Of a DNA stretch of 49,067 bases, positions 563 through 47,893 are shown one piece after another. Both the position numbers and the translations under genes were made by a program. The stretch covers positions 1 through 49,067 of the IMG/VR virus record IMGVR_UViG_3300044825_000433; one strand, given 5' to 3'. This stretch comes from a virus (taxonomy: Duplodnaviria > Caudoviricetes). The notes under the pieces were generated by a model. It ran no database searches. It saw nothing but the letters and a program-made list of their open reading frames with translations, and was not told where the DNA came from. The first letter of the stretch is position 1. Each line of letters starts with the position of its first letter.

Positions 563-1501
563 ATGGCTAGTACATACAGCAATCTCAAAATTGAACTGAT
601 TGCCACTGGTGAGCAGTCAGGTACGTGGGGTAGTACAACCAACACGAACTTGGGAACTGCGCTTGAGGAGGCGGTTGTCGGTTCTGCTGACGTTACCTTT
701 GCCAGCGCTGACGTTACCCTAACCCTTACAGATACGAACGCTTCCCAGATAGCTCGTAACTTTCGTTTAAACCTAACTGGGACTTCTGGCGGCGCAAGAA
801 ATTTGATTGTCCCGGCAATTGAGAAGTCCTATGTTGTTTACAACGGTGTAGCCGACACGGTCACGGTCAAGAATTCGACGGGTACAGGTATCGCAGTCCC
901 GTCTGGTAAGACCATGATGGTCTACAACGATGGCACGAACGTCGTTGATGTCACAACCTATGCATCCTCCATGACACTAGGTTCTGCCCTGCCGGTAGCT
1001 TCCGGTGGTACTGGAATTTCTTCTGGTACGTCCGGCGGGGTTCTTTATTACTCAGCAACTGGAACGCTGGCAAGTTCAGGTGCTCTGGCGGCAAGTGCGC
1101 TGGTTGTAGGTGGTGGCGCGGGTTCAGCCCCATCAACCATCACAACTGGAACGGGAGTCACGACCGCGCTAGGTGTAAACGTAGGGACGGCAGGAGCCTT
1201 TGTAGTTAATGGAGGAGCACTAGGCACTCCAAGCTCAGGCACTCTGACCAATGCAATGGGGCTTCCTCTTTCTACAGGTGTCACAGGAACTCTACCGGAA
1301 ACGAATGGCGGTACAGCACAAAGCACCTACACCACGGGTGACATTCTGTATGCATCAGCATCTAACACCCTAAGCAAGCTTCCAATTGGTAGTAATGGGC
1401 AGGTTCTTACCATTTCGTCTGGTATCCCTGCGTGGGGCGCATCAAGTGGTGGTATTTCAACAGGTAAAAGTATCGCTATGGCGATGATTTTTGGCTTCTG
1501 A
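563..1501 (+). CDS. Tail fibre-like structural protein
   Basis: AAGGA RBS. N-terminus MASTYSNLKIELIATGEQSGTWG and a Gly/Thr/Ser-rich body with LPxxxGGT and GDILYASA fibre-type repeats. Confidence 0.7.
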   Translation: MASTYSNLKIELIATGEQSGTWGSTTNTNLGTALEEAVVGSADVTFASADVTLTLTDTNASQIARNFRLNLTGTSGGARNLIVPAIEKSYVVYNGVADTVTVKNSTGTGIAVPSGKTMMVYNDGTNVVDVTTYASSMTLGSALPVASGGTGISSGTSGGVLYYSATGTLASSGALAASALVVGGGAGSAPSTITTGTGVTTALGVNVGTAGAFVVNGGALGTPSSGTLTNAMGLPLSTGVTGTLPETNGGTAQSTYTTGDILYASASNTLSKLPIGSNGQVLTISSGIPAWGASSGGISTGKSIAMAMIFGF

Positions 1502-1512
1502 GGAGTTATTAA

Positions 1513-1920
1513 ATGGCTAACCCAAACATTGTCAACGTAACGAGTATTTACGGAAATACTGCCTACGTTATCCCTTCATCTGCGGCTACTCCCACGACTT
1601 CGTGGACGTACAACGGCACTACTTCTTTGACAGGTTTGACCCCAGCGGCAAATACGGTCAACCGTGTGACTTCAATTACCGCATCGAATACAACGGCAAG
1701 TGCTGCCACTGCGACTATTGCGGTTGGTAATAATCCAACTTTTGCTTCTTCTACGGTGACTACCTACCCGGCATACCAAATCTCTGTGCCGCCAAATGCA
1801 ACGCTAGTGATTGTGGACAAGACCAATTCTTTGTATATCACCGAGAACCAGTCAGTCGCAGCATTTTCCGGCACGGCATCTGCCTTGACCTTCACCGCGA
1901 CGTTTGAAGCTATTACCTAA
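1513..1920 (+). CDS. Small virion structural protein
   Basis: GAGGAG RBS. MANPNIVNVTSIYG start; beta-rich and Thr/Ala-rich; lies among tail genes. Confidence 0.6.
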   Translation: MANPNIVNVTSIYGNTAYVIPSSAATPTTSWTYNGTTSLTGLTPAANTVNRVTSITASNTTASAATATIAVGNNPTFASSTVTTYPAYQISVPPNATLVIVDKTNSLYITENQSVAAFSGTASALTFTATFEAIT

Positions 1921-1930
1921 TAGGTGAAGT

Positions 1931-2794
1931 ATGCCCCTGCGCTCCATCCCCGGTAACTTCGTATCTGCTTCATACAACCCAAACTTTACCCCGCCTCCTA
2001 CTGGGGCTACGCCTTCTGTAGAGTACTTGGTCATAGCTGGTGGAGGTGCAGGGGGCTATTCAACTCCCGGCGGTGGCGGTGCTGGAGGGTATAGGTCTTC
2101 TGTTTTTGGGGAGTCTTCTGGCGGTGGGGCGGCGGCAGAAACTCCACTAGCTGTGACTGCGGGAACCGCGTATACCATAACTGTGGGTTCGGGAGCAGCA
2201 GGACGAAGCACTGCGGGTCAGGGTGCAAATGGAACCAATTCTGTGTTTGGCTCAATCACTTCTACTGGTGGCGGGGGTGGTGGCGGTGGAAGCACTTCTG
2301 CGGTGGGTAGTTCAGGTGGGTCTTCTGGTGGTTCAGCGGAAAGTAGCGCAACTACAACTGCTGGAACTGCAAACCAAGGTTATGCTGGGGGTGCATATAA
2401 CGGTGGAGGCGGCGGCGCGGGGCAGGCAGGAGCAACAGGTTACGGCGCTGGCGGTACTCAATCTGGTATTGGTGGAAATGGTGTTTCATCTTCAATCACT
2501 GGAACCGCTATAACTATGGCGGGGGGTGGCGCAGGATACGGTAGGTTAAGTGGAGGCAGCCCACTTCTTGTAAGCGGAGGCGTTGGTGGTGGAGGAAGCA
2601 CTAATGTAAGTGGTCTTGCTAATACGGGGGGTGGCGGCGGCGCTGACGGAGGAGGTGGTGGTTCTGGCGTTGTCATTCTCCGTTGGTCAAAGAACTTTAG
2701 AGACTGCGCATCAACGACAGGTTCTCCACAGATAATTGCCAGCAATGACTATTACATCTATCGTTTTACTGGTAACGGATCAATAACATTCTGA
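1931..2794 (+). CDS. Glycine-rich domain tail-associated protein
   Basis: VEYLVIAGGGAGG...YTITVG...GGSGVVILRW pattern of phage glycine-rich domains. Confidence 0.7.
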   Translation: MPLRSIPGNFVSASYNPNFTPPPTGATPSVEYLVIAGGGAGGYSTPGGGGAGGYRSSVFGESSGGGAAAETPLAVTAGTAYTITVGSGAAGRSTAGQGANGTNSVFGSITSTGGGGGGGGSTSAVGSSGGSSGGSAESSATTTAGTANQGYAGGAYNGGGGGAGQAGATGYGAGGTQSGIGGNGVSSSITGTAITMAGGGAGYGRLSGGSPLLVSGGVGGGGSTNVSGLANTGGGGGADGGGGGSGVVILRWSKNFRDCASTTGSPQIIASNDYYIYRFTGNGSITF

Positions 2795-2802
2795 GGCAGA
2801 AT

Positions 2803-3225
2803 ATGGCGCATTTTGCAAAACTTGATGACAACAATGTAGTTATTGAAGTCAATGCTGTTAACAATGCCGAGCTTATTGTTAAAAAGACTACAGTCACAGA
2901 TGACGGCTTTATTAATGTTTCCACTATTGAATCCGAAGAAAAAGGTATTGCTTTTTTGATCGAATGGTCTGGCGGTTATACAAACTGGAAACAAACCAGC
3001 TACAACGGAAATTTCCGTGGGAAGTACGCAGCTATTGGAGACATATATGACGCAGAAGCTGGTGAATTTCGCTCTCCTGTCGTGGCTCCTAGCGCTGATG
3101 TTCCTGTCGTCGCCCCTGCTATGGAAACTCAGCAAGAGGTGGTTTTGGAGACACAAGCGCCGGTAGTATTAGAGTCAACAGACATACCTGCCATGACCAG
3201 CGAACAGATTTCCGGATTGGAGTAA
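2803..3225 (+). CDS. Conserved phage protein accompanying glycine-rich fibre genes (possible fibre chaperone)
   Basis: MAHFAKLDDNNVV...WKQTSYNGNFRGKYA motif; GAGG RBS. Confidence 0.6.
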   Translation: MAHFAKLDDNNVVIEVNAVNNAELIVKKTTVTDDGFINVSTIESEEKGIAFLIEWSGGYTNWKQTSYNGNFRGKYAAIGDIYDAEAGEFRSPVVAPSADVPVVAPAMETQQEVVLETQAPVVLESTDIPAMTSEQISGLE

Positions 3226-3228
3226 ACC

Positions 3229-5322: not shown

Positions 5323-5325
5323 GAC

Positions 5326-8781: not shown

Positions 8782-8782
8782 T

Positions 8783-11447: not shown

Positions 11448-11448
11448 A

Positions 11449-25700: not shown

Positions 25701-28700
25701 ACGCAATGCCCTAACCGGCGCAGGATTCCAGACCTACGAGGATGTATTTGGGAAGGTCGAGCGTGGGGCATTGAAGCCTGCCAAGCCTGAACAGGTTAAA
25801 CCATCCGAGCCTAAGTTCGACCAGACGGACGCTTGGCAAGCCACGCCCAAGGAGCGTCAAGAAGCCTTGGAGATGTATGACGAAGACGGGTTCCTGCCTT
25901 ATGTATCTCAGGGTCGTTTAAACGTACCTATTGATGATGTTAAGTACAGCCTCCAAAAGTTTAATCCTGAGAAACATTTGGACTTTGACTCGACGTTGGG
26001 TGTGCCGATCAACAAGGACGGCACGGTAACCATGTACTACCACACGACCAAGGCAGAGTCCTTGGCGATCAATACGTCCAAAGTTATCCCGGCAAACGGC
26101 AGAAGCCGTATTTACCTGACCAATGAATCTTCCGGTGCGAAGGTCATCCCCAACAAAGGGAACATGGAGCAGGAGATAGACGGCAGCACGGTGCTGGTCT
26201 ATGTGACCCCCGACATGCTGCAAGTGGATACGAAGTATGACGATGGCAGGGTAGACCTGTACATCCCTGTGGCGCAGGGAGAGTACTTCAACAAGAAGAT
26301 GAAGCAGCACTCCATCCAGAAGGCAAGGACTGAAGCCATTGCCAAAGAGTTCAGCTACGAAGACCACGAAAAGCGCATTACCGACTCCATCAAGAAATAT
26401 CAAGCTGCCAGCCAGAAAGAACGTGCTGCCATGCTTAAACAGGCAAGGGGTGTGTTAAAACGTGAACACAATATTGGTTCTTTGCTAACAGAGAACGGCA
26501 AGCTAGAGAAGACCCGCATTGGCGACTACAACCTGTCGTATGACGGTCTGCCTGTTGCTTCCCAAGGTCTTGGTTTGGCATCTGCCCAGAAGATCACTGA
26601 GAAGGTTTCTACTTGCCCCCGCTCTTCAATCTGCGAGGGGCTGTGCTTGGGCGAGACATCCGGCGGCAATTTCATGTTCGGCGGGGCAGCGGCAGAAGAT
26701 GTTGGGGACATCCAGAAGAGTGCCTTCCGCGCTGGCGCACGGATGATCCAGTACCTGAAGACCGAAGCCTTGATCGTCAACCCTGAAGCTTTTGCCGTTT
26801 TGCTTCAGGCTGAGATTGACTCCTTGAAGCGTTGGTCAGCCTCCCCGACAGTCAGGAAGAAGAATCCTGAAACCGGCAAGGTGGGCATGGTTCCAAAAGA
26901 CATCTATGCCCCAGCAGTGCGTTTAAACGTCACATCCGACTTCAAGCCCAGCATGTTCCGGGGCGTGATCGATGGCAACAAAGATGTGATGTTCTACGAC
27001 TACACCAAGATCAACAGCGACACGATTGCCGAAAACCACCACCTTACTTATTCCTCCACAGGATTTGGTCAGATTGTTGACGGCAAGCCCGTGTTCTTCA
27101 AGAACAAGGCTGGCAGGTACGACCACAACTGGGAAACAGTGAAAGACCGTTTAAACAATGGTTTCAATGTGGCGATGGCTTTCTCAAGCAAGTCTGCCCT
27201 GCCCAAGTTTTTGAAAGACGAGAAGAGCGGCAAGACCTATCGCATCTTGGATGGTGATCTGTACGATGCCCGTTACCTAGACCAGTACAGCAAAGAGAAG
27301 GAAGAGTCTGAGGGTGCAGGGGTCATTGTTGGTTTACGCAACAAGGCAGGCACATTAAGCGAGAAGAACGCCACAGAGAAAACCGATGGCTTCTTTGTTA
27401 AATATGATCCAAAGACTGATGGAGACACCGTCGTTGCCCCAGATCAGGATCAATTTAAAACGGCAGAACCGCCAAAGCCTGAACCAATTAAAACAATTCC
27501 TATCGCCAAAAAGAAACTTAGCCTGCGCGACACGCCACAATTTAAACAATGGTTTGGCGACTCGAAGATAGTCAACGAAGATGGCACTCCCAAGGTCATG
27601 TACCACGGCACTGCCCGTGACATCACTGTCTTCCAGCCTAAACAGGCGAATGCTATTTTTGTAACTGAAGATCCTAAGTTTGCAGAAGTGTTTGGCGACA
27701 CTAGCGAAGGCTACATGGTAGGAGAGTTTTTTAACAAAGCTACTCCAGAAAAGCGCAATCAAATAATCATGAAGGCTGCACAACGTGCGCTTGATAACAA
27801 AGATATAAGTAAAAAACAGTTTGATGAAATACAAAGAGAATTCAAGGAAATGGATGTCACCTTTGGTCTCATCCCGACTTCCATAGAATTAGATATTCGC
27901 GACATCATAAATGATGAGTTGCCTTCCCGCGCCAACATCATGCCTGTGTATGTCAGCGCACAGAATCCTTTTGATTATGCAAATGAAGACCACAGAAAAA
28001 AACTTTCTCCAATATTAAAAAAGAATTACAAATTAGAAAATCAACCTAATATACATGCGCGGGATATGGGTCTTCTTGCGCAAGGAAGTTGGATGTTTAT
28101 AGAAGCCCAAAACACCCAAAAATCTATTCGTGAAGCTGGCTTTGACGGATTCTACGTCCTAGAAGGCGGCAGGAAGAACCTAGCTGTCTACAACCCAGAA
28201 CAGATCAAGTCTGCCACTGGCAACTCAGGGATGTATGACAAGTACAACCCTGACATCCGGTACAACCTGCGTGACACTACTGACCCGGCTATCCGGGCGG
28301 CAGTGGATCAGGTTACGACCGCACGGGACGACAGAACCCATGCCGAGCGCATCACTGGTGCCTTGAGAGATAAGAACACATGGTCTAACTTCCGTGCCCA
28401 AGCTTTAAACAGATACAACCGTCTGGCTGACTATGACAAGGAGCTTGTGCGTCGGATGGGTGGAGCAAAGCTCTTGGCTGACTCCAGTGCTGAAGCTGCT
28501 GCCTTGATGTCTGATCTGGGCGCAGGGCTTACAGCCTCTGCTCTTGGCGTTCATGACCGGATCGGTGGTATCCCCGTCTACAAGAACGGTGTGACGACCG
28601 TGACCAATTTAAACAACACGGTCAAGGGTCCTGTAGCTATCTTTGCCCCGCTGTCCAAGTACGGTGATCCCTACATCTACCAGCTATATCAGTTCTGGGC

Positions 28701-30816
28701 AGGAGCCAAGCGCGGCAAGAGACTATTGGCAGATGGCAGGGAGCAGACTTACACCCCAGCCATGATGGCTTACGCCCAGCGTCTGGAGCGGCAGTACCCA
28801 GAGTTTGACCAGATCCAGAAGGAATGGATCAAGTACAACAACGGTCTGGTTCAGTTCCTTGTGGATACAGGTGTGCTCTCCAAGAACAAAGCTGATGAGT
28901 TCACCCGGTACAGTGATTACGTCCCCTTCTACCGTCAGTTTGAGGGCGAGCAGACTATTGGTCCCAACCTGTTTGCTTCCATCTCCGGAGTCAAAGGTCC
29001 CAAGAAGTTGAAGGGCGGGGAAGCTCCTCTGGCAGATTTCCTAGAGACAATTGTCAGGAATACCCAATCTTCAATCCAAATGGGTATCAAGAATGTCGCA
29101 GCCCAGAGAGCCGCTGATGTAGCTACCCAGATTGGTGAGGCTACCCGTTTAAACCATGTGGCTTCCGGTCCTGAGATATTCACCGCCATTGAGAATGGCA
29201 AGCTTGTCTATTACCAGAGCCATGACCACCTGTTTATCAATGCCATCAAGAGCCTGAACCTGCCTGACCTGCCGTTCATTGGGCTACTTGCTGCCCCGGC
29301 AAACTGGCTGAGAAACCTTGTGACCAAAGACCCAGCCTTTATGCTGGCGAACATGGTCAGGGACTCTATGTCGGCGTATGTGACCTCCGGCGCTAACTTT
29401 AAACCGGTAGTCTCCACCATCGCCAACTTCGGTAAGTCGATTGCCGGGACATCTCCTGAGTACGAGAAGCTGTTAAACGCAGGTCTGATCGGGGGCTATG
29501 AGTTCTCCCAGAATGTCGAGCAGTCCAGCAAGACGATGGAAGAAGCCATGCGGATCAAGGCTGGCATCAAGTCTGGCAAGGATTACGCCTTGGGTGTCTG
29601 GCAAGCCTTGGAGAAGGGCACGACCGCATCGGACGCAGCCACTCGTATTGAGGTCTACAAGTCCACAATGGCTGAGACAGGGAATGAGGCAGAAGCTCTG
29701 TTCCGAGCGATGGAGGTCATGAACTTCAACCGTAAGGGAAGCTCTGCCGTTATCCGTGTTCTGACCGCCGCAATCCCCTTCCTGAACGCTCGTATGCAGG
29801 GTCTGGATGTCCTGTACCGGGCGGCTATCAGACCGACCATCCAAAGACTGACCGGCGATTATGTGTCGGGCACAGAGGCTGAAAGGCAGAGAACCTTTGT
29901 GGTTCGTGGTCTGACCATCGCAGCCCTGTCCTGTATGTACTGGGCACTGACCCATGATGACGATGAGTACAAGAAGCAGGAACAAGAGGTCAGGGATAAC
30001 TACTGGCTAGTCCCATCCCTTGGGGTCAAGATCCCCATCCCGTTCGAGGTGGGTATCATCTTTAAGGTCATCCCTGAAAGAATCATGGCGTATTCCTTCG
30101 GGGACGACACCGGGAAGGACTTTGCCAAGTCTATGGGTAAACAGTTGATGAATACCCTTGCGTTTAACCCGATCCCCCAAACTGCCCTGCCTCTCGTTGA
30201 GAACATCACCAACTATTCCTTCTTCACCGGACGAGACATTGTCCCGCAGGGTTTAAAGGATGTAGCTCCTGAGTTCCAAGTCGGTCCCGGCACCTCTCTC
30301 TTTGCCCAGTGGTTAGGTCAAGGTATTGGTGCATCCCCCATGAAGATTGACCATCTGGTCAAGGGATATACAGGGACAATGGGTGGCTACTTGGTAGATG
30401 CGCTAGACATGGTCATGGACTTCAACAATGACTCGCCCAAGGTCTCCAAGCGTCTTGAGCAGATGCCCTTCATCAAACGCTTTGCCCTAGACCCAGAGGC
30501 GCGGGGCACGGTCACAGCCTTCTACGAGATGAAGGATTCGGTAGATGAGGTTACCCGCACAATCAACCTCTTGGAGCGCACAGGGGACTACGAGGCTTGG
30601 GGTGAGTACTACCAAGACAACATGAACATGTTGGCAACGAAGGACTATATCCAAGACTTAGAGAAGCAAATGAAGGAACTCCGGGAGATGAAGAACCTGA
30701 TCCGCAATTCCCAAATGAGTGGCGATCAGAAGCGGGATGCTATCTTGGACATTACCAAAATGGAAAACCAGCTTACCTCAAACATGCAGCAACTCAAGAA
30801 GCTGACCGCAAAATAA
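22795..30816 (+). CDS. Large polyvalent virion protein (HExxH peptidase-like, ART-like, GP88-like, ART-PolyVal, LPD38)
   Basis: LRHESIH...EEAIADAF at about 25390-25620. YYHTT...IYLT at about 26030-26120. CPxxxxCxxxCL...RLNVTSD...FYDYTK...DGDxYDARYLD at about 26600-27350. FKQWFGDSKIV...MYHGT...GFDG...QIKSA at about 27540-28260. LPD38-like IPIPFEVG...NYSFFTGRDIVP at about 30000-30300. Confidence 0.85.
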   Translation: MALYQIKAPDGNTYRIEGPDGATQDDVIRAVVAQHPYSGFATEELKQQPRAPMSLGDIGRAGLSSLVGATGSIASAFGAESAPARGLRGLAQEIQQGMTPERQEEMRRREEIMSRAEKEGTLSEIGSGVGAVTEAPVQAIASGIGSSVPAIAAGITAMVAGAPFAIAGAVALTAKLAIGALQGAGEAKGSIFESVTQKLMEEKGLSRPEAEAQAIKAQEYLGKNAPGIMGGAAAGMLDAVLGVESMFGKAGKKAATRPLTQPSMAKTAGITALGEAVPEAIQAGVGQVAENVALQNAGIDTSTFQGVSGAVARDALMGALTGGAVSPLQMSSLRKEYAQEKERRLNEEQAKIDEQIRKEEETLRQQQEAAAAQERAKEEEMVSAPPVQVKAPTNVHPIRNPLGNIEKENFQQEGIDPYLSQHIDEYRKSAGLPPIKSYSIEDIVDSMPGVNPVEEQKQIDTLLAARTGYQGERLTAKDILDQATAKQIPIDQSFSDFLNRTTGQADPKSMSQAQLFAAFKSIQALPEKAELETGSNAIRFTDKQYNAAIKSLDKKLGEEPVLVSDALSDIKLSTGLSEDMYAKSILDEAVRRGDVDRAGEKITAPTTAEVLPEGYEIQEGMFERGEKPEGFQVQMGENILPDVYATEEEATNKSNELIKGQGRLAKELNNRIEQNKAAIQKAEEKLTELQAAGQEGIAYDRMVANVTNLRNKTSENIARLTEQLDRIDPTKVSTTVVPAKAKKTKGKGFTLFKNKKAVKVFKTREEAERAIVEGLPEKEIQALTQVKGRRTLKKRAEEEITRRKQPKEPKVEQKKPEFEPALRALLDRFGLKDVALKIEKDMKADGEYSKAVIKVALDSANPVRTLRHESIHALKELGFFTPQQWKALEREAKTKWIDTYLRQRNINGDPLEAGQQSRYDAYMNVYKGDQDALIEEAIADAFGDFDMTKAPPGMMSAILKRLKLFFEALRNALTGAGFQTYEDVFGKVERGALKPAKPEQVKPSEPKFDQTDAWQATPKERQEALEMYDEDGFLPYVSQGRLNVPIDDVKYSLQKFNPEKHLDFDSTLGVPINKDGTVTMYYHTTKAESLAINTSKVIPANGRSRIYLTNESSGAKVIPNKGNMEQEIDGSTVLVYVTPDMLQVDTKYDDGRVDLYIPVAQGEYFNKKMKQHSIQKARTEAIAKEFSYEDHEKRITDSIKKYQAASQKERAAMLKQARGVLKREHNIGSLLTENGKLEKTRIGDYNLSYDGLPVASQGLGLASAQKITEKVSTCPRSSICEGLCLGETSGGNFMFGGAAAEDVGDIQKSAFRAGARMIQYLKTEALIVNPEAFAVLLQAEIDSLKRWSASPTVRKKNPETGKVGMVPKDIYAPAVRLNVTSDFKPSMFRGVIDGNKDVMFYDYTKINSDTIAENHHLTYSSTGFGQIVDGKPVFFKNKAGRYDHNWETVKDRLNNGFNVAMAFSSKSALPKFLKDEKSGKTYRILDGDLYDARYLDQYSKEKEESEGAGVIVGLRNKAGTLSEKNATEKTDGFFVKYDPKTDGDTVVAPDQDQFKTAEPPKPEPIKTIPIAKKKLSLRDTPQFKQWFGDSKIVNEDGTPKVMYHGTARDITVFQPKQANAIFVTEDPKFAEVFGDTSEGYMVGEFFNKATPEKRNQIIMKAAQRALDNKDISKKQFDEIQREFKEMDVTFGLIPTSIELDIRDIINDELPSRANIMPVYVSAQNPFDYANEDHRKKLSPILKKNYKLENQPNIHARDMGLLAQGSWMFIEAQNTQKSIREAGFDGFYVLEGGRKNLAVYNPEQIKSATGNSGMYDKYNPDIRYNLRDTTDPAIRAAVDQVTTARDDRTHAERITGALRDKNTWSNFRAQALNRYNRLADYDKELVRRMGGAKLLADSSAEAAALMSDLGAGLTASALGVHDRIGGIPVYKNGVTTVTNLNNTVKGPVAIFAPLSKYGDPYIYQLYQFWAGAKRGKRLLADGREQTYTPAMMAYAQRLERQYPEFDQIQKEWIKYNNGLVQFLVDTGVLSKNKADEFTRYSDYVPFYRQFEGEQTIGPNLFASISGVKGPKKLKGGEAPLADFLETIVRNTQSSIQMGIKNVAAQRAADVATQIGEATRLNHVASGPEIFTAIENGKLVYYQSHDHLFINAIKSLNLPDLPFIGLLAAPANWLRNLVTKDPAFMLANMVRDSMSAYVTSGANFKPVVSTIANFGKSIAGTSPEYEKLLNAGLIGGYEFSQNVEQSSKTMEEAMRIKAGIKSGKDYALGVWQALEKGTTASDAATRIEVYKSTMAETGNEAEALFRAMEVMNFNRKGSSAVIRVLTAAIPFLNARMQGLDVLYRAAIRPTIQRLTGDYVSGTEAERQRTFVVRGLTIAALSCMYWALTHDDDEYKKQEQEVRDNYWLVPSLGVKIPIPFEVGIIFKVIPERIMAYSFGDDTGKDFAKSMGKQLMNTLAFNPIPQTALPLVENITNYSFFTGRDIVPQGLKDVAPEFQVGPGTSLFAQWLGQGIGASPMKIDHLVKGYTGTMGGYLVDALDMVMDFNNDSPKVSKRLEQMPFIKRFALDPEARGTVTAFYEMKDSVDEVTRTINLLERTGDYEAWGEYYQDNMNMLATKDYIQDLEKQMKELREMKNLIRNSQMSGDQKRDAILDITKMENQLTSNMQQLKKLTAK

Positions 30817-31105: not shown

Positions 31106-31332
31106 TTCTTCTCGGACGGGGTTACGACCGACGGATTGAACTGTGGCGCAGGTCTGCCCAAGCTCTCAATACCCTGTGCGGTCATGATGCGGAAGTCTGC
31201 CCATTTCTTTTGATAAGAAGGATCTTCTGTCGGAGGAACCCAACCTGCCTTGCGCCAGCGGATCGTGATGTCCGTCGTTGAGGGCGTGTAGACATAGTTG
31301 TCGTTTAAAGTCATTCCGTTCTTGGTGTTCAT
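31090..31332 (-). CDS. Hypothetical protein
   Basis: Overlaps both neighbours in a tightly packed operon. Confidence 0.55.
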   Translation of the reverse strand: MNTKNGMTLNDNYVYTPSTTDITIRWRKAGWVPPTEDPSYQKKWADFRIMTAQGIESLGRPAPQFNPSVVTPSEKKWKEK

Positions 31333-31562: not shown

Positions 31563-31563
31563 T

Positions 31564-32213: not shown

Positions 32214-32419
32214 GATTTCTCCATCCAGTTTTTCATCTTCTCTCCAATCCAAAAACCAGCCTCGTTCTTGGACATCCCTTTCTGCGTCATCTCCTCTGGT
32301 GTCAGACATCTCCTGCCCTCCCCGTACTTGCCGGTTCTGTGTTTGTCAAACGCACCAAGGCTATTGAAGTATTCCTTACACCCTCCGCATTGGTTCCTAT
32401 TCCCCTTCAATAACTTCAT
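32210..32419 (-). CDS. Zn-binding protein with FDxHR motif
   Basis: CGGC...FNSLGAFDKHR...RRCL. Confidence 0.7.
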   Translation of the reverse strand: MKLLKGNRNQCGGCKEYFNSLGAFDKHRTGKYGEGRRCLTPEEMTQKGMSKNEAGFWIGEKMKNWMEKS

Positions 32420-32705
32420 TTTTGATTAACCTTTCCAAGTCTTCGTTAATCAGTTCCGCAAAGGATTTCCCTGAGGGGAAGCGCATCTTGGTGGCGTTGT
32501 TCTCTTCTACAACTATCATCGCTTTCTTCACCGCATCGTTGAATCCAGCGACGTAAGGATTCTCTTCAGTCATCCTTTGTTCAACGCCCTCCCTGATTAA
32601 CTGGTTCATAGACATCCCATGCTTTTTGGAAAACTGTTTGATGCGCCGCATGGTTGCTTCATCAAAGTAGACAACAAATTGTTTATTTAAAAGGGTCGTC
32701 GCCAT
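32397..32705 (-). CDS. Ribbon-helix-helix DNA-binding protein
   Basis: QFVVYFDEATMRRIKQFSKKHGMSMNQLIREGV fits the strand-helix-helix pattern. Confidence 0.65.
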   Translation of the reverse strand: MATTLLNKQFVVYFDEATMRRIKQFSKKHGMSMNQLIREGVEQRMTEENPYVAGFNDAVKKAMIVVEENNATKMRFPSGKSFAELINEDLERLIKNEVIEGE

Positions 32706-36922: not shown

Positions 36923-36929
36923 GCGAACA

Positions 36930-38043: not shown

Positions 38044-38044
38044 T

Positions 38045-39240: not shown

Positions 39241-40934
39241 TTGCTGACGTAATTGCCCATTACCCGTTTGACCAAACTGCCCGCATCTCTTGCCCCGAAT
39301 GTACCCCGGAGCGGAGGAAGCAGCGGTCAAAAGATATGACGTTGACCCGCAAGCCCGATGGCGCAATCGTTTACCACTGCCATCACTGCGGAGCCAATGG
39401 TTCAGTACAACCCAAGAAACAGGAGATAACCTTGTCTGCCGTTCCATCGAAAGTAATAACCAGCAATAAGCTGGAAGAACGCCACTATGATTGGCTTGCC
39501 TCGCGGGGAATATCCAAAGAAACCGCAGACAAGATGGGGCTGTTTGCAGCAGACAGATGGTTTAACCGGCTGGACAAGAAGTCCGATGCCATTGGCTTCC
39601 CCTACTACCGGGACGGTGCGTTGATCGCAGCCAAGTATCGATCCTTCCCAGAGAAAGACTTCACCCAAGACCAAGGCGGGGCGCATGACTTCTTTGCTTT
39701 GGACAAGGTAGAGAAGGGCAAGCCCCTGATCATTGTCGAAGGTGAGATAGATTGTTTAACCCTGATCGAGGCAGGAATACAGAACGTCGTATCAGTCCCA
39801 TCAGGTGCGCCCATCAAGGTGGCAGATGGGAAAGTTTTACCCAGCGAGGACAAGAAGTTTTCTTATGTCTGGAACGCCAGAGAAATCATTGACGCAGCAC
39901 CGTACATCATCCTCGCCACAGACCAAGACCCTCCCGGTCAAGCACTGGCAGAAGAGCTTGCACGAAGGATCGGCAAAGAGAAATGCAGGATCGCAAAGTT
40001 CAACAAGAAAGATTTGAACGAGGTGTTTCTGTCAGACGATGACCCGACACAGACACCCAGTGAGATCATTGAGGGCATCCTCGCAGACGCGCAGCCCTAC
40101 CCCATCGCCGGTCTCTCCGAACCAACGGCGTTCAAGGATCGTTTAAACGACCTGTACACGAAGGGCACGGGCAAGGGGTTCAGCACGGGCTACGGATCAG
40201 TCGATACGATTTACACGGTAGCACCGGGACAACTCACGGTAGTCACAGGTTATCCATCATCGGGCAAATCCAACTTCGTCGATCAACTCATGGTCAATCT
40301 AGGGAAGAACCATGATTGGAAGTTCGCGGTCTGCTCGTTTGAGAACCAACCTGAGATCCATATCTCCCGACTGATGGAAATTTACACAAAGAAACGGTTC
40401 TTCGAGGGCAAGGGCAGGATGACGGATCAGGAGCGGGACGATGCGTTTAAATGGGTGTCGGATCACTTCCTGTTTATCGATAACAACGGGGAGGAACCCA
40501 GCACCCTCGACTCCATCCTCGAGCGTGCCCGCATAGCGGTTAAACGCATGGGCATTCGGGGGCTGGTCATCGACCCATACAATTACATTGATCTGGATAA
40601 GACCAACAGCACAGAGACTGAAGCGATATCCAACATGCTCACGCGAGTGCAGCGGTTCTGCAAGGCTCACGACGTACATACATGGTTCGTGGCTCACCCA
40701 TCAAAGATCAACCGCTCTGGAGTCGAACAACCCCGCCCTGACGGTATGTCAATCAGTGGATCAATGGCATGGTGGGCAAAGGCAGACTGCGGCTTGACGG
40801 TTCACAGGCTGGAAAACCATGTTGAAATCGCAGTGTGGAAATCACGCTACCGCTGGGTGGGAACTCAAGGGGAAACGACCCTGCTCTACAACCGCGTGTC
40901 AGGTACATACGAGGAGCAAATCGATCATTTTTGA
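39237..40934 (+). CDS. Primase-helicase (T7 gp4/Twinkle-like: Zn finger, TOPRIM, SF4 helicase)
   Basis: CPEC...CHHC zinc finger; IVEGEID and ATDQD TOPRIM motifs; GYPSSGKS Walker A; VIDPYN; VAHP; ISGS. Confidence 0.92.
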   Translation: MIADVIAHYPFDQTARISCPECTPERRKQRSKDMTLTRKPDGAIVYHCHHCGANGSVQPKKQEITLSAVPSKVITSNKLEERHYDWLASRGISKETADKMGLFAADRWFNRLDKKSDAIGFPYYRDGALIAAKYRSFPEKDFTQDQGGAHDFFALDKVEKGKPLIIVEGEIDCLTLIEAGIQNVVSVPSGAPIKVADGKVLPSEDKKFSYVWNAREIIDAAPYIILATDQDPPGQALAEELARRIGKEKCRIAKFNKKDLNEVFLSDDDPTQTPSEIIEGILADAQPYPIAGLSEPTAFKDRLNDLYTKGTGKGFSTGYGSVDTIYTVAPGQLTVVTGYPSSGKSNFVDQLMVNLGKNHDWKFAVCSFENQPEIHISRLMEIYTKKRFFEGKGRMTDQERDDAFKWVSDHFLFIDNNGEEPSTLDSILERARIAVKRMGIRGLVIDPYNYIDLDKTNSTETEAISNMLTRVQRFCKAHDVHTWFVAHPSKINRSGVEQPRPDGMSISGSMAWWAKADCGLTVHRLENHVEIAVWKSRYRWVGTQGETTLLYNRVSGTYEEQIDHF

Positions 40935-41061
40935 GGGGATACGCATATTCCGCGCCCCTCGTCGCGTCTGAAGGTTTCGGACAGGCAAACCGCTTGAATG
41001 CCCAACCTGTCCGACCACATAAAAAGTCGCATATGCGAGGCTCGTTTAAATGTGCTTATGA

Positions 41062-41950: not shown

Positions 41951-41962
41951 ACATAAGAATAT

Positions 41963-42181: not shown

Positions 42182-42201
42182 ATCTCCCCCTTCTACTATC
42201 A

Positions 42202-42273
42202 TCAAATGCCAGTGATACAGAGCACGACGATGCACATAACACAAGCCAGCATCACAATGTAGTCAACGTCCAT
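42202..42273 (-). CDS. 23-aa hydrophobic peptide
   Basis: MDVDYIVMLACVMCIVVLCITGI with a G-rich RBS, filling the gap between genes. Confidence 0.4.
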   Translation of the reverse strand: MDVDYIVMLACVMCIVVLCITGI

Positions 42274-42282
42274 AGTCCCCCC

Positions 42283-43812
42283 TTATGCGGCAAGTTTGAT
42301 TCGGTTGAATGATGCTGCTGCGAGATCATTCAGATTGTCAACCCGAATTGAATCAGGGTATACATGCCCGACACTCTCCATGATGCCGATGCCGACAGTG
42401 GTCACACCTGCGCGAGTTGCAATGTCGATTTGTTTTCGGGCTGATGCTGGTCTGCCCTCGCCATCGGTCAAGGCAAAGACTACCTTGCGCGACTCAGGGC
42501 GACGCAGGATGATCTGGTGCGCGTGACGCAGTGCTTCGTAGTCTGCCGTCGATCCACTGGACTTGACCCGGCTGATAATGTTCCTCGCCTTGCTCACTGG
42601 TGTACCGAATGCAACCGGCACAGATACGTTGTGATTGAATGCGACGACTGACACAGATACACCTGCGCGGCTCAGGGTTTCGTACAGTGCAGCAGCAGCA
42701 TCACGCGCCACATTAATTTTTTCGGAGCGGTTATCCGACATACTGGAAGATACGTCCAGCAGGATCACAACGGCAGAGTCGATGCCCTCATGTTCCTGAT
42801 GACGTTTAAACAGTTTGTCGCTGGTATTGATCCGGTGCAATGCGGTCACGTTCAGAGACCCTGATTTGCGGTTCACTGCAAAGTCATCGAACGCAGAGTT
42901 CTCAAACAGGCGGCGCACCTCAAACCGCAGCCGACCTGCATTGAATGGTTTGATCGGGTAAGTGATTGCGCCCAGATGGTCACCCGGCTCGCCCAGATCG
43001 TCCGGTCTGAAGTCAGGCTGTTTTGAATCGCCATCGACCTTGAGTGTCGGCTCGACCTCCATCGATTCAGCATCCTCGCGTACAGGTTTGCTAGGCTGAT
43101 TGACAGTGGGCTGCTCTGGGGTGTTTTGCTCGTCGCCCTCAGTCTGACCCTCGTCGCTGGATTCATCGCCTTGTGCGCCCTCTGGTGAGGTCTCAGACCC
43201 ATTGTCGGGCTGCTGCTGCGACTGCTGATTGATCTGGTCAAACACCCACCGGGCAATCTCCAACGTATCGCTGCTGTTTAAACAGCCATCGATCCTGCGC
43301 TGCGCCTCGTTAAAGATCGGGGCAAGGTTCGCCGGTACAGGTACACGCTTGCAGAATCCACGCGCCCACAGTGCCAGTGCGAATGGGTACTGCGCCGGGG
43401 CAGACCAGTCAACAAAGATATCAGCCAGTGCTTTGTCGGCGAGACCATCAGCCAGTGTGCGGAGCAGGGTTTCAATATTCCCGGTCAGCCCGACGGCGAT
43501 CGCCTTGCGTTCGATCCACGCATCTTCCAGTGCATTGTGCAGACGATCCACATAGGCGCGACCATCACGCGCCCGAAAGTCAGTGAATTTACGATGTAGC
43601 AACTCATGCACAATGTAACCGGCATATTGATTTACTAACTGCTTGCTGACGGTTGCATCATCTGCAACATTCGCCAACAGGATATTGCCATGCTCGCTGA
43701 TCGCAGCAGTCTGAATATTTGTCCAAGTAATCGACACTGGATTCAGCCCCAATGCGGCGCAGGTCTTATGCGCCATTGATTCGATGCCTGCTCTGAATTG
43801 ATATCCGCGCAT
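42283..43812 (-). CDS. vWA-domain protein with N-terminal HExxH region (CobT-like partner of the AAA+ ATPase)
   Basis: HELLH...NALED at the N-terminus, an acidic linker, then MIDAS DVSSSM, ST and LTDG. Confidence 0.85.
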   Translation of the reverse strand: MRGYQFRAGIESMAHKTCAALGLNPVSITWTNIQTAAISEHGNILLANVADDATVSKQLVNQYAGYIVHELLHRKFTDFRARDGRAYVDRLHNALEDAWIERKAIAVGLTGNIETLLRTLADGLADKALADIFVDWSAPAQYPFALALWARGFCKRVPVPANLAPIFNEAQRRIDGCLNSSDTLEIARWVFDQINQQSQQQPDNGSETSPEGAQGDESSDEGQTEGDEQNTPEQPTVNQPSKPVREDAESMEVEPTLKVDGDSKQPDFRPDDLGEPGDHLGAITYPIKPFNAGRLRFEVRRLFENSAFDDFAVNRKSGSLNVTALHRINTSDKLFKRHQEHEGIDSAVVILLDVSSSMSDNRSEKINVARDAAAALYETLSRAGVSVSVVAFNHNVSVPVAFGTPVSKARNIISRVKSSGSTADYEALRHAHQIILRRPESRKVVFALTDGEGRPASARKQIDIATRAGVTTVGIGIMESVGHVYPDSIRVDNLNDLAAASFNRIKLAA

Positions 43813-43814
43813 GA

Positions 43815-45311
43815 TTACACCTTGAAAATGTTATTGTTTAAATGAGCAGCCTTGATTGCGTTGATTGCAATCTCTGATTCACCCGGCTGACGCGCAGCGA
43901 TACAGGTGTCGAATGCCTCATCTGCGCCCAGCACTGGGAGTGCCCGAATGAACGCGACGATCTGCCTGATTGACGGTGCATCGACGATATTGCCAGCATC
44001 GACCTGCTGACGGCAGACATTTACCATTTCGATAACTGCTTTGGCGAGGTCTTCAGTGCAGCCTGTGTGACGCTGGACGGCTGAGACCTCATGGTAAAAG
44101 TCCAAGTGTTTAAATGGTACGACGCGGCTGAAGCGGTCAGCCAGTGCAGAGTTCATCTGTTGGGTGCCTGAGTACCTGCCGCTCTGGTCACCATTGGTCA
44201 GGGTGTTGTCGGCTGCGATGATCATCACGCCCGGTGCTCTGCGCCTTACCTTGCCGCCGATGGTCACGGCTGCGCCCGGTTCCAGCAGGGCATTCAGCGG
44301 AGCGAGTTCACCGGGGGCTGCGTTGGTGATCTCGTCCAGCAAGATCACCGTGCCGGGTGTTTCGTATGCGCGCAGGAAGTCGCCCTCTGCAAACACGGTA
44401 TTGCCGTTCACCAGCGCGGTGCTCCCGATGTATTCTTCCGCAGTCGTGTACTTGTGGAAATTGATACGGCAGAATCCGCGCCCGGTGCGAGCGGCAAACT
44501 GCTGCGCGGTTTGGGTTTTGCCTGCGCCCTTCTCTCCACCGAACCAAGCATTCTCGCCGGTCTGCTCAGACAGGATCAGATGGCGCAGGATCGTCGAACG
44601 CCAGATAAAGTTGGGATCAACGGCAGGTGCAGCGGGCGAGTTCCAGAGTTGCACCGACATGTCACTGCCAGCGGCATCAGGCGCAGGGCAATCGAACACG
44701 TTGTATGCGGCATCAGTCCCGGTTATATGCACCGCCGACAGGTCAGCGGCAACCTGCTGCAACCCGGCTTCCTCAATTGCGCGTTTAAATGTACCGAACT
44801 CAGCGGATACAGCAGACGCGACGACAGAGGCGATTTGCGCCGCATCGACCTTGAAAGACCCGGCAGTGCGCTGCGCGGCAGCGACCTTGGATTCCAGATC
44901 GGAAACTTTGGCAGCGGTATCAGTGCGGATGGAATCCAAGCCCTTGACGGCTGCATCAATCCCATGATCGAGGCGATTCATCGCCAGCGACAGGGTGTCA
45001 ACCTGAGTGCCGATGCGGTTCAGGTCAATCCCAACAGCATCGATGATGCGGTCTTTCATCTGACGTAGTTTGCCGTCAACGTCAGTGGCGGCAGGCTGCG
45101 TGGCAGGCTGCGCCGGGGCGACGGTGTTCGGCTTGTACTGCCTGATCTGATCCAGAGTGATCAGGCCAGCATCAACCCGCGCTGCGAGTTCCTGCGCGAT
45201 ATCGCGTTTGGTGCGATTGCCTACCAGCCCGACATTGTTCATGTATGCGCTTTCCACTACCGGCAAAGGGATACGCATAATTTGATCCAGCGTGGCGATT
45301 AGTGTAGCCAT
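43815..45311 (-). CDS. MoxR/CobS-like AAA+ ATPase
   Basis: Walker A GEKGAGKT, Walker B ILLDE, ADNT sensor and ALADRF arginine finger; coiled-coil N-terminal extension. Confidence 0.88.
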   Translation of the reverse strand: MATLIATLDQIMRIPLPVVESAYMNNVGLVGNRTKRDIAQELAARVDAGLITLDQIRQYKPNTVAPAQPATQPAATDVDGKLRQMKDRIIDAVGIDLNRIGTQVDTLSLAMNRLDHGIDAAVKGLDSIRTDTAAKVSDLESKVAAAQRTAGSFKVDAAQIASVVASAVSAEFGTFKRAIEEAGLQQVAADLSAVHITGTDAAYNVFDCPAPDAAGSDMSVQLWNSPAAPAVDPNFIWRSTILRHLILSEQTGENAWFGGEKGAGKTQTAQQFAARTGRGFCRINFHKYTTAEEYIGSTALVNGNTVFAEGDFLRAYETPGTVILLDEITNAAPGELAPLNALLEPGAAVTIGGKVRRRAPGVMIIAADNTLTNGDQSGRYSGTQQMNSALADRFSRVVPFKHLDFYHEVSAVQRHTGCTEDLAKAVIEMVNVCRQQVDAGNIVDAPSIRQIVAFIRALPVLGADEAFDTCIAARQPGESEIAINAIKAAHLNNNIFKV

Positions 45312-45313
45312 AA

Positions 45314-45901
45314 TTAAACCTCCGAGTTGTCAAGATTGAATGTGTCACCGCAGACGCAAGTGGGGAGACCCTGCTGCGCCCATTTTTGGGTGAGTCGGAT
45401 CGTGTACTGGCACGACGGGCAAACCGCTTTGAGCAGACGAGTCGCCTGCTTTTTGCGCGTGTTTAAACTGAGTTGTGCATGGGGATACGCGCCCAAAGAC
45501 CCGATGATCTCGCCATACGATTGCAGGAAGTCAGCCGCTTGTTCGGTGGCTTTCCACGCCTGTTTGCCTGAACCGCAGGGGCGCAGGTGCATGGCTGCGG
45601 CGAACTTTTGAAACGTTACACCGTGATTCATCGCGCCCGGCAAGGCATGGCAGAGTTCATGCACGAGCACATCAAACACCCGATCAGGGTTATCCAGTAC
45701 CGGGCTGATCAGAATTTCAATCGTCTTATCAGCAGACGCAGTATCAGCCCAGCATTCACCGATGGCATTGCTGCGACGGGCATTCGATGGGAAACCACAA
45801 GCGACGCGGATTTTTTGTGGGAGCGGCGCAGCCCACAGATCAAACAGTGGGCGCAATTCTGTGACGGCTGCGGTCAGCCAATCCTCGCGTGTTGAATACA
45901 T
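45314..45901 (-). CDS. SprT-like zinc metalloprotease
   Basis: GAGGGG RBS before ATG 45901. VLVHELCH...HG..F and C-terminal CPSC...CVCG. Confidence 0.75.
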   Translation of the reverse strand: MYSTREDWLTAAVTELRPLFDLWAAPLPQKIRVACGFPSNARRSNAIGECWADTASADKTIEILISPVLDNPDRVFDVLVHELCHALPGAMNHGVTFQKFAAAMHLRPCGSGKQAWKATEQAADFLQSYGEIIGSLGAYPHAQLSLNTRKKQATRLLKAVCPSCQYTIRLTQKWAQQGLPTCVCGDTFNLDNSEV

Positions 45902-45911
45902 GACAATCCCC

Positions 45912-46241
45912 TCAGACGTTGTAGTAAGTGTGCAATTGAACCGAATATTCGCGGCGGGAAATGCGGCGAACATCGACGTAGGTGCGAGGGCATCCGCAGC
46001 AATCATGCTCATGACGGCAATTCGATCCGCCCATAGTGTCGGCAATTGCGTTGGACAGGTTAGTGCCGCGCAGCGCAGCCGGGGCAATGACCAGTGTCTT
46101 ATGGGACTTGCCGTCGATGCCATCGTCAGCCAGCCGCTGGTAGCGCAATACTTTCGCCGCGCCGATGTATTGGTGCTGATCTTCTCCGCTCCAGCCGTCG
46201 CTGTATTGGTGGGTGAGTCTCTCAAATAGATCGATTTTCAT
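45912..46241 (-). CDS. Hypothetical protein with CxHxHDCCGC motif
   Basis: GGAGGT RBS; first gene of the leftward operon. Confidence 0.65.
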   Translation of the reverse strand: MKIDLFERLTHQYSDGWSGEDQHQYIGAAKVLRYQRLADDGIDGKSHKTLVIAPAALRGTNLSNAIADTMGGSNCRHEHDCCGCPRTYVDVRRISRREYSVQLHTYYNV

Positions 46242-46299
46242 AAGACCTCCGAGTTATCAAGTTACTACGTTTAAATGAATGTGCTACTGAGCGAATTAC

Positions 46300-46340
46300 A
46301 TCATAGTACTAGCACCGATGCAAGCACTAGTTACTAGCAC
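46300..46340 (-). promoter_or_regulatory. Leftward promoter/operator region
   Basis: -10 TATGAT preceded by GCTAGTAC, a 13/14 match to 36295-36308. TACTAGCAC occurs twice. Confidence 0.5.
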
Positions 46341-46415
46341 ATACCAATTATTTTTACTTACATCAATGGCAACTCATGAGATATACGATTTGTTTATCGT
46401 ATGCAACATGGCAAC

Positions 46416-46607
46416 TGTGGATAACTAGTTGTCAAAGGATAAAAAAACCGCGCAGGTTGAACGAACGCAGGTCGGGTGAGGGTGAGGTAGCCTGAACGGA
46501 AAAAACGGCTCAGATCGCCTCTGGTGAGGTCTGAGGGGCATTTTCAGTATTGACAACAAAATCAGGTGCGTTGTTCTACTTGCATCTGTGTATAACTCTG
46601 TGGATAA
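46416..46607. promoter_or_regulatory. Three DnaA boxes
   Basis: TGTGGATAA at 46416-46424 and 46599-46607, and TGTGTATAA at 46587-46595; all fit TTWTNCACA on the minus strand. Confidence 0.65.
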
Positions 46608-46608
46608 T
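46580..46608 (+). promoter_or_regulatory. Putative terS promoter overlapped by two DnaA boxes
   Basis: TTGCAT-17 nt-GATAAT. Confidence 0.5.
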
Positions 46609-46678
46609 GCGAACGAAGGTATTTAAACGATCAGTGCGCGGTGATGGTGCTGAATTGTCAATTGCAAGTGAGGCGGAC

Positions 46679-47266
46679 ATGGGAAAGACGACGCAAGGCG
46701 AGTATCTGGCGGCATTGGAGGAAGCGAATCAGTGCATCGACGAGGGTTATCAGGATGACAATGCGCCGGGGTTCGATAGCGAAGCGGAACGGATCGCAGC
46801 ATCACTCCCACCAAAGAAGCTAAAGAACATCAATAAGCCACTAACAGAACAGCAGAGGGCATTCGCAACGTATGTCATACAGGGCAAAACCCGCAGGGAA
46901 GCGTATCGTCTGGCATATAACACCAGCATGAGCGATAGCGCAGTCAGCAGCAACGCGGCAAAGCTAGCAGCAGACCCACGCATCGCCAGCATGATCAGTG
47001 CTGCATGGGACGAGACCATTGAGCACCTAGCAGATGATGTGGCGAGTACTAGAAGGTATGTGTTGAGGAAGTTGGTTTCACTGAGCAAAGAAGGCAAGCA
47101 GGAAGGTTCACGTTTAAAAGCACTGGAACTGCTAGGCAAGTCCATTGGGCTATTCACTGGCATCGAAGAGAAGACCGACAAGGCTGTTGCACCAGAGCAG
47201 TTGAAGCGGGAACTGTCGCAGCATCTGAAGCTACTCGACAATGTGAAGACATTGAAGGTGAAGTGA
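46679..47266 (+). CDS. terS: Terminase small subunit
   Basis: LTEQQRAFATYV...EAYRLAY HTH and RLKALELLGKSIGLF C-terminal motif; upstream of TerL; GAGG RBS before ATG 46679. Confidence 0.75.
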   Translation: MGKTTQGEYLAALEEANQCIDEGYQDDNAPGFDSEAERIAASLPPKKLKNINKPLTEQQRAFATYVIQGKTRREAYRLAYNTSMSDSAVSSNAAKLAADPRIASMISAAWDETIEHLADDVASTRRYVLRKLVSLSKEGKQEGSRLKALELLGKSIGLFTGIEEKTDKAVAPEQLKRELSQHLKLLDNVKTLKVK

Positions 47267-47453
47267 TCATGTTTAAACGATCCGACACTGTGAGTCTGCG
47301 CCCCCGACACCCGTTGTGTGTGCTGGGCGTGACCCCACCGTACCCCGACCCCCCACTGTGGCACAGATGGGACCCGTCACCGCTTACGCTGTAATCCACA
47401 CAAACAAATATGTACCCCCACCCAATGAGAACAATGTATTGCCCCCACCCCCC

Positions 47454-47469
47454 TGTTTCACGTGAAACA
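47454..47469. promoter_or_regulatory. parS: Perfect parS palindrome
   Basis: TGTTTCACGTGAAACA is identical to the canonical chromosomal parS consensus; intergenic. Confidence 0.8.
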
Positions 47470-47512
47470 TAGGAAAAGGAGGTAAGGTTTTTAGACGGGG
47501 GGTATATATATG

Positions 47513-47541
47513 TTGAGAGTTTAAATGTTCTCATTTATAGT
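47513..47541 (+). promoter_or_regulatory. Sigma70-like promoter for the RNA array/terL operon
   Basis: TTGAGA-17 nt-TATAGT. The predicted start at about 47547 coincides with the first RNA stem. AGTTTAAATGTT occurs twice, 21 bp apart. Confidence 0.6.
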
Positions 47542-47546
47542 TTAAA

Positions 47547-47893
47547 TGTTGGGAAAGCAGATGCTGCAATTTGATTAACTCTGGTCAGTGGTCAAGCAGT
47601 GGAGCGAGTACCAACACGCATGGGCATTTGCCAGAAGGTAGACCGCACCTCTACCGACGAGAGAGATGGTGAGTGTCCAGTCGTGTTGGTGGCTGTGCAA
47701 CCAAGCACAAGGCGTTCACGGGGTAGTGGTGGGGCTACCGTTCGACTCGGTGGCTCGGCGCTGTTGGGATGCCGCCAGCATGACACCTCGGAAAGACGAG
47801 GGCTAACACGCATGAGGATTGGCGGGTTGAACTCCCGAGTGATGCGGTGACCGAATCCGCACAATCTGGCAAAGCAGTCCTCAGCCGTGTTGG
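47547..47893 (+). ncRNA. Array of structured RNA modules
   Basis: Five stem-loop modules with many G-U pairs on the + strand, including a bulged-G (AGUA/GAA) motif, a T-arm (TTCGACT loop) and two copies of one closing stem. Confidence 0.6.

Follow-up and report, generated by a model that had tools for sequence, protein, structure and literature searches.

Why should a tailed phage carry the same palindrome again and again along its DNA, and which protein might read it? The question was raised by IMG/VR record IMGVR_UViG_3300044825_000433, a 49-kb stretch (called the window here, meaning the whole of the stretch analysed) in which a preliminary description had noticed the iterated 8-mer GTTTAAAC. 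We find that this 8-mer belongs to a selected, dyadic and often evenly spaced motif, YGTTTAAACR, which, over some ten lineages, goes together with a single protein domain and its residues. The domain is part of a SprT-like zinc metallopeptidase of 195 residues (45314-45901, minus strand; HELCH at 45647-45661) encoded in the early operon, which is the proposed cognate protein. Our reading, to which we assign a probability of roughly 0.65, is that the palindromes are binding sites of the phage's own SprT-like protein, which would be made early, shield the phage DNA and hold down its own promoter.

An iterated dyad and the constraint on its sites

All 21 exact copies of GTTTAAAC in the preliminary description were recovered, 4 before 22 kb and 17 after, together with six copies of CGTTTAAACG at precisely the positions listed there, nine one-mismatch sites, the five R-L-N readings in the polyvalent-protein gene with F-K readings elsewhere, and the sites after stop codons (36729, 47271) and before ribosome-binding sites (41753, 41941). 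The excess survived shuffling that preserved codons and amino acids (300 shuffles genome-wide and 300 per gene). In coding DNA, exact GTTTAAAC occurred 17 times against 1.07 and 1.42 expected with the two shuffle types (maxima 5 and 4), GTTTAAA 69 times against 7.4-8.4, and TTTAAA 71 times against 14.5-15.4. Comparable words showed no such excess and stayed near expectation (ATTTAAAT 2 against 0.6, TTTTAAAA 3 against 0.9, AAATTT 11 against 15-17, GTTAAC 7 against 11). Codon bias and A+T content are therefore ruled out as the cause, and an artefact of PmeI linkers or assembly is ruled out by the occurrence of sites in frame and at homologous positions in relatives.

While the excess of the 8-mer stood, the 8-mer as a unit did not, since it is only the centre of a degenerate 10-bp family, YGTTTAAACR (765-47547, no strand assigned). 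With its tolerated variants the family has 67 members in the window (GTTTAAAC 21, GTTTAAAT 21, GTTTAAAG 17, GTTTACAC 8), of which 22 lie in the first 22 kb and just 4 in the first 8.7 kb; this is about one site per 0.7 kb overall, sparse in the tail-fibre region before 8.7 kb and about one per 0.55-0.6 kb thereafter. Among 252 perfect sites in nine genomes no base beyond the ten was conserved, and the Y and R flanks were preferred independently: the observed classes (140/97/15) were close to those of an independent dyad (141/95/16) and unlike those of a polar site (126/126/0). The motif is a true dyad, a symmetry that fits the dimeric binder suggested at the outset. In the family of the window phage 227 sites were sense and 202 antisense, so that there is no strand bias; the flank test and the absent bias together rule out polar signals such as a primase site, a nick site or Chi.

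Relatives use one of several dialects, namely the perfect palindrome, GTTTAAAT or GTTTACA, and by our reading a word of the motif family is among the top four 6-mers in 79 of 79 primase relatives, some of which are near-duplicates. In the window phage 54 of 78 sites lay deep inside long open reading frames (ORFs), and in Zeta1847, a cultured phage considered below, 16 of 22 were inside genes; in 12 of 13 genomes, nevertheless, site density outside long ORFs was 1.3-2.2 times that within, and density was greater in the early and replication half. Of 28 related loci, 24 had sites spaced more regularly than at random, 11 of them at p<0.05.

Constraint on individual sites was clearest in the primase-helicase gene. 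The CGTTTAAACG site at 40140-40149 (plus strand), read as R-L-N, is the most constrained 9-mer of this gene, its codons CGT-TTA-AAC being kept in 35 of 36 relatives where 2.3% was expected. At 40444-40452 (plus strand) the site CGTTTAAAT, read as A-F-K-W, keeps its motif codons in 36 of 38 relatives, against 5% expected. These two are the most constrained of 145 conserved tripeptides in 45 of the 57 available sequences (the 12 excluded were the outgroup and 11 of other dialects). In the GTTTACA lineage R-L-N has become R-V-N and A-F-K-W has become A-F-T-W, and the lineage's own variant of the motif is retained; individual sites persist among relatives 60-100% identical in protein. Positional conservation, synonymous constraint and amino-acid changes that keep a motif variant thus support selection at the DNA level, as had been proposed.

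The SprT-like gene and its zinc domain

Within the family of the window phage, the SprT-like gene was present in 16 of 16 motif-rich genomes and in none of six that were motif-poor or weak (22 genomes or large pieces). The vWA gene (42283-43812, minus strand) and the adjoining MoxR/CobS-like AAA+ gene (43815-45311, minus strand), which lies beside SprT, also travel with the motif inside this family and are dispensable for it elsewhere. No motif excess was seen in three cultured relatives by terminase (023Pt_psg01, DSL-LC04 and MinM2; 50 kb each).

A scan that started from the motif, using paired GTTTAAAC palindromes and covering 5 of the 64 parts of the viral collection, led to an unrelated group of freshwater actinophages with about 3 exact sites per kb. 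Six of seven loci of this group matched the SprT profile, and no gene of the window family reached the similarity cut-off. The group has what we read as a WhiB-like gene, and a TerL 50% identical to that of Streptomyces phages such as Manuel, which is without a SprT match and has 2 sites against 1 for the control. Spacing was even in five of six loci, and in the seven loci the early 10 kb contained 20-38 sites, whereas the late 11.8 kb contained 1-4.

In the converse test, 11 cultured phages were chosen only for their SprT gene, and strand counts of sites were compared with a control. Five were motif-rich (KeAlii 23 against 0, LazerLemon 42 against 0, Pan1 33 against 1, R5C 37 against 0, Zeta1847 23 against 1). 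Three had fewer sites (Mano 9 against 1, Persinger 9 against 0, ep3 15 against 10), each with a site just upstream of the SprT gene, and only about four palindromes were present in Mano and in Persinger. Dismas, CN1 and Epa43 had essentially no motif. The form was GTTTACAC in KeAlii, Zeta1847 and LazerLemon, and GTTTAAAC in R5C and Pan1; the spread was even in four of these five, with whole-genome even spacing in R5C, Pan1 and LazerLemon, and GTTTACA ran mostly one way in KeAlii (19:4) and Zeta1847 (17:6). The motif-bearing SprT phages infect Arthrobacter (A. globiformis for KeAlii), Microbacterium (Zeta1847), Streptomyces (S. griseus for LazerLemon) and Dinoroseobacter (D. shibae for R5C), the four phages named here having 16-41 predicted sites; to these hosts the freshwater actinophages and a Magnetospira plasmid are to be added.

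The gene was matched in 164 phage and 74 plasmid records. Four of the 74 plasmids were checked: on that of Magnetospira 19 sites occur within 31 kb (control 1), and one of these is 77 bp upstream of the SprT gene; two others have 2 and 4, and one has none. On three of the four (L721, L722, L723) the SprT-like gene lies directly upstream of a ParA-family gene. Over all loci without a nearby MoxR-type motif, a grouping made by a crude pattern match that misplaces a few loci, a site was found within 150 bp upstream of the SprT gene in 21 of 29, where 4.3 were expected. In the window the nearest upstream site is a variant, GTTTAAAT (46269-46276, no strand assigned), which precedes the early operon and is about 370 bp away from the start of SprT.

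The protein combines an HExxH zincin (HELCH in the window) with a C-terminal zinc domain, as in the SPRTN/Wss1-like peptidases of PF10263. SPRTN and Wss1 bind DNA by structure and are not known to do so by sequence. The Pfam SprT-like match was weak (9 of 14 members, the first member below the curated cut-off); the model of a family member (predicted local distance difference test score 85.6) showed a zincin and a separate small domain, with SPRTN 6MDW as the best, though weak, fold match (E=0.036). In the window the four-cysteine domain occupies 45317-45487 (minus strand), with a Q-A-T-R strand at 45437-45448, and is the predicted DNA-reading module. An atlas search with this domain returned only generic zinc-ribbon clusters.

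The residues of the opening strand vary together with the motif. The Q-x-T-R strand with which the zinc domain begins is absent from Dismas, CN1 and Epa43, two of which are also without the domain's first cysteines. The motif was enriched at p<0.001 for 130 of 138 distinct Q-x-T-R domains, and was enriched for none of five domains with unrelated strands. Nor was it enriched for any of the five R-N-T-N domains of the same actinophage group, yet their loci (L599, L600, L645, L656 and L660) iterate a second palindrome, TGTCTTAAGACA with its variants, and hold 13-26 copies of GTCTTAAG against 0.5-1.6 expected. Two Q-S-T-N domains go with a shift to ATTTAAAT, in which the first base changes from G to A; arginine prefers to contact G and asparagine A, and the shift is in line with these preferences. 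Loci L624 and L640 iterate GTTTAGAC. Of the 38 Q-x-T-R members without the HExxH signature, 37 still have the motif, and in some actinophages a zinc domain of about 55 residues is all that remains, the protease domain being gone. To judge from these sequences, protease activity is apparently dispensable for the motif.

Possible functions and rival explanations

The SprT-like protein probably binds the motif physically, as its covariation with the palindrome suggests. It had not been named in the preliminary description, whose candidates, three small DNA-binding proteins, fit less well. The helix-turn-helix (HTH) protein at 31329 has no homologue in two or more of ten related genomes and is therefore not core; the ribbon-helix-helix protein (32397-32705, minus strand), though a core gene, was rejected because its beta-strand varies widely among lineages sharing the same motif. 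MoxR/vWA and primase, which accompany the motif in the window phage's family, were undetected near SprT in the motif-rich L390 and L383, and MoxR/vWA also in the actinophage loci. The third candidate, a LexA-like winged HTH (wHTH) protein (47901-48131, plus strand) encoded upstream of TerL, might be the binder in the window phage's own family: its gene is core in 10 of 10 full genomes, in many lineages sites precede its start by 10-15 bp, and its helix is altered in two clades, to SCGGTYR in the one with GTTTACA and to RGNxxRKM in a sister clade free of the motif. The helix, however, co-varies only partly, since near-identical helices go with a strong and with a weak or no motif (G270 against G269; L330); the L253 clade has the motif and no site upstream of the wHTH gene, and the sister clade has a different dyad there. 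Nor was the gene found in five fragments (21-49% complete) of motif-rich actinophages, to which this search was confined, cultured phages not being included. We therefore regard the wHTH protein as a very unlikely reader. The dyad of the sister clade (L245, L285, L295-L304, L308-L318), RTAACA-(1-3 bases)-TGTTAY in one to four copies before the gene, is likely the wHTH protein's own operator.

Less likely still, the palindrome would be bound by a conserved host protein, with the SprT gene simply accompanying phages that exploit that protein. The host-type DnaA boxes and parS carried by the family would agree with this, as would G066, a Burkholderiales chromosome of 39.5% G+C with a modest excess of YGTTTAAACR (38, control 7; a density some 20-fold below that of the phages). 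But the hosts range over Actinobacteria, Alpha- and Betaproteobacteria, and the motif switches with the residues of the phage protein inside one actinophage genus. Enrichment in the predicted host, proposed earlier as a check, was not seen in candidate host chromosomes: the 8-mer is not iterated at phage scale in 251 Burkholderiales genomes, where it is usually below its reversed control and peaks near 41 per Mb, the window having about 430; the comparison takes in these genomes, one of them (G027, unpublished) solely as a row of counts, and 4 bins, actinobacterial and alphaproteobacterial hosts not being counted. In one Burkholderiaceae bin (G001, contig C52, 402-1729) eight copies of GTTTAAAC stand within 1.3 kb, probably another mobile element. 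The least likely explanation is a mutational or methylation-linked process of the HIP1 type, writing the palindrome without benefit at each site. Slow accumulation of this kind predicts that recently exchanged tail-fibre genes should be poor in sites, as they are; it sits badly with sites that persist in relatives and survive amino-acid change, and with spacing that in many cases is more regular than chance would give. The 49-kb window, which lacks about 12-15 kb of the genome, yielded no DNA methyltransferase, host methylases lying outside the search.

The main rival keeps the same protein and makes its sites stoperator-like, blocking initiation at promoters and elongation in genes so as to time early genes or keep a prophage quiet. 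It would predict sites upstream of SprT, ahead of the ribosome-binding sites of early genes and, as arrays, preceding the wHTH/TerL unit, and such sites are seen; the higher density outside long ORFs, the one-way GTTTACA of KeAlii and Zeta1847 and the few palindromes of Mano and Persinger point the same way. The SprT gene is near the integrase in AZ phages, according to the available portion of a preprint (bioRxiv 2025.05.26.655371). Against it stand the absence of strand bias in the window phage's family, the position of most sites deep in genes, including a primase gene required for lytic growth, the genome-wide even spacing in R5C, Pan1 and LazerLemon, the occurrence on a plasmid, and the lack of an integrase among the window's annotated genes. 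We consider this rival unlikely, though a good deal less so than those above.

The mechanism that we prefer, with the SprT-like protein shielding the phage DNA, would run as follows. The protein would be produced early in infection, and its C-terminal zinc domain would read YGTTTAAACR as a dimer; bound protein would then dot the phage DNA every 0.3-5 kb, and the coated DNA would probably be shielded from host DNA-tracking defences. Where a site sits at its own promoter, the protein would repress it; both dimerisation and autoregulation are inferred. Proteolysis would be optional, and in members with HExxH the sites might also tether the protease to self DNA. The purpose is the least certain part of this reading. 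Given binding, shielding has somewhat less than an even chance and is favoured because coding DNA is covered in both orientations, and because of the even spacing, the concentration on early DNA, the occurrence on a plasmid and the parallel with ArdC discussed below; a transcriptional roadblock is possible but less probable, and compaction or segregation is doubtful. Tentatively, and against the odds as we see them, the system may be a mobile self-marking device of phages and plasmids across phyla, in which a residue-coded reader of the SprT family is paired with evenly spaced, self-written palindromes, and a roadblock or tethered protease stops or strips host defence and silencing proteins.

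Several observations weigh against our reading. The MoxR-bearing own family shows no excess of upstream sites (20 of 93, 18.4 expected), G269 has a weak excess of the motif without a SprT gene (26 against 9.2), and over the full window the sites are not regularly spaced (p=0.67), p falling to 0.017 only when the first 8.7 kb is omitted. No solved structure clearly matches the zinc domain (best Z 3.3 in a fold search). Most of the 138 domains belong to two clades, and the sample was partly selected by motif, so that they amount to some ten independent lineages, and eight Q-x-T-R loci were not enriched at p<0.001 (L388, L389, L392, L400, L636, ep3, Mano and Persinger). The residue rule is loose: the Magnetospira protein is Q-S-I-R with many sites, while pSWIT01 is Q-K-T-R with 4 sites in 310 kb and pRI-2 has none. 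Nor does the protein explain G259, G270 and G273, where Q-x-T-R is intact but there are 1-2 perfect GTTTAAAC and 20-34 GTTTAAAT; perhaps these phages shun the perfect 8-mer on account of a host 8-base restriction enzyme. Lastly, the protein may not be packaged and may come too late to guard entering DNA.

Genome context and known systems

The window belongs to an uncultured tailed lake phage and carries tail and ejection genes, a 2673-residue polyvalent protein, Sak, an exonuclease, RusA, a T7-like primase-helicase, the early vWA/MoxR/SprT block, TerS, the LexA-like wHTH gene and the first part of TerL. It is short of the whole genome by about 12-15 kb, complete relatives spanning 55-66 kb. 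No nucleotide match was found among the cultured phages searched, and the sole hint of a host is that related primase genes occur on contigs binned with betaproteobacterial genomes. A small ORF (45912-46241) precedes SprT in the early operon. The polyvalent protein (22795-30816) has GP88, ART-PolyVal and LPD38 domains, and the unrelated phage L390 has what we read as a GP88-like gene standing alone close to SprT.

Two variant sites 21 bp apart (47519-47547, no strand assigned) stand upstream of the wHTH/terminase unit, where many relatives have arrays. Close by, between TerS and the wHTH gene (47454-47469), is what we take, by its consensus, to be a perfect chromosomal-type parS palindrome; near-matches occur in 11 of 83 related loci, and the phage may recruit host ParB through it. 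Two elements at 46416 and 46599 are DnaA boxes, again by consensus, with clusters in L010, L021, L034, L042, L057 and L064, and in many relatives such boxes lie in the stretch from the early operon to TerS. As the window yielded no DNA polymerase, an origin fired by host DnaA is possible. GGCC is heavily avoided (12 copies in the whole window; 9 against 144 in the codon-preserving shuffles), and CCCGGG, CCATGG, CTGCAG, GGCGCC and GGATCC are absent, pointing to heavy restriction pressure.

HIP1, GCGATCGC, is a hyper-abundant, conserved and quasi-periodic 8-bp palindrome of cyanobacterial chromosomes, read through coding frames and recognised by the methylases DmtA and DmtC; its function has been open for decades. 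The likeness drawn in the preliminary description holds for over-abundance in several reading frames, conservation and quasi-regular spacing, but is superficial, because HIP1 belongs to host chromosomes and methylases whereas YGTTTAAACR belongs to mobile DNA, tracks a non-methylase gene and is not iterated in the chromosomes sampled. The LexA operator (SOS box) differs in having a spacer between its half-sites and in being confined to promoters, while our motif has no spacer and lies mostly deep in long ORFs.

In its working, the system would be most like the stoperators of Cluster A mycobacteriophages. In L5 and Bxb1 these are asymmetric 13-14 bp sites, oriented with transcription, numbering 20-30 per genome and bound by a monomeric HTH repressor, as far as the available parts of the two papers state (PMC6550527, PMC9283540). 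On that partial account both systems have tens of sites for one phage protein (its binding being predicted here), a site upstream of the protein's own gene, and a motif that varies with the protein. Site symmetry and protein type differ, for ours is a 10-bp dyad in both orientations at up to 3 per kb, and its predicted reader is a zinc domain on a SprT-like zincin, not a two-domain HTH repressor, found in three bacterial groups and on a plasmid. ArdC of plasmid R388, in the sections of the paper available, counters type I restriction by DNA binding without needing its protease site, and binds single-stranded DNA without sequence specificity through its N-terminal domain, no cognate repeat being described (PMC7213743). 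Within those limits it offers a parallel in protein architecture: a mobile-element DNA-binding domain (here predicted) joined to a SprT-related metalloprotease whose protease site is dispensable. Here, in contrast, the domain is C-terminal, has zinc and co-varies with a double-stranded palindrome; the ArdC N-terminal domain had no Pfam match in 14 members at E 0.1, and the protease domain begins at the N-terminus.

For the SprT-like protease of Arthrobacter cluster AZ and Microbacterium EB/EH phages, a SPRTN-like role in crosslink repair or a role in lysogeny has been proposed; the accessible text of that preprint names no target sequence or genome-wide repeat and mentions repeats as data not shown (bioRxiv 2025.05.26.655371). 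Chi-rich lambdoid phages, as described in the available part of one paper, also show octamer enrichment linked to particular phage genes, in their case to the absence of recombination genes, and Chi is polar, read by RecBCD and abundant in the host (PMC12315714). Our motif is non-polar and not host-abundant, and the window phage has Sak, exonuclease and RusA. A link of the motif to phages or to SprT was not found in the open literature searched, subscription journals and preprint supplements being outside that scope, and the protein-palindrome system of these mobile elements is apparently previously undescribed.

If our reading is true, a widespread and unexplained gene of phages and plasmids would gain a target sequence, a protein of the SprT family would become a sequence-specific DNA binder, and mobile elements would be seen to reshape their coding sequence around a protein that they encode. 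A domain of about 55 residues with switchable specificity could also serve as a tool. In contrast to HIP1, the reader is predicted here, and the system, occurring in cultured phages of harmless laboratory hosts, can be tested directly.

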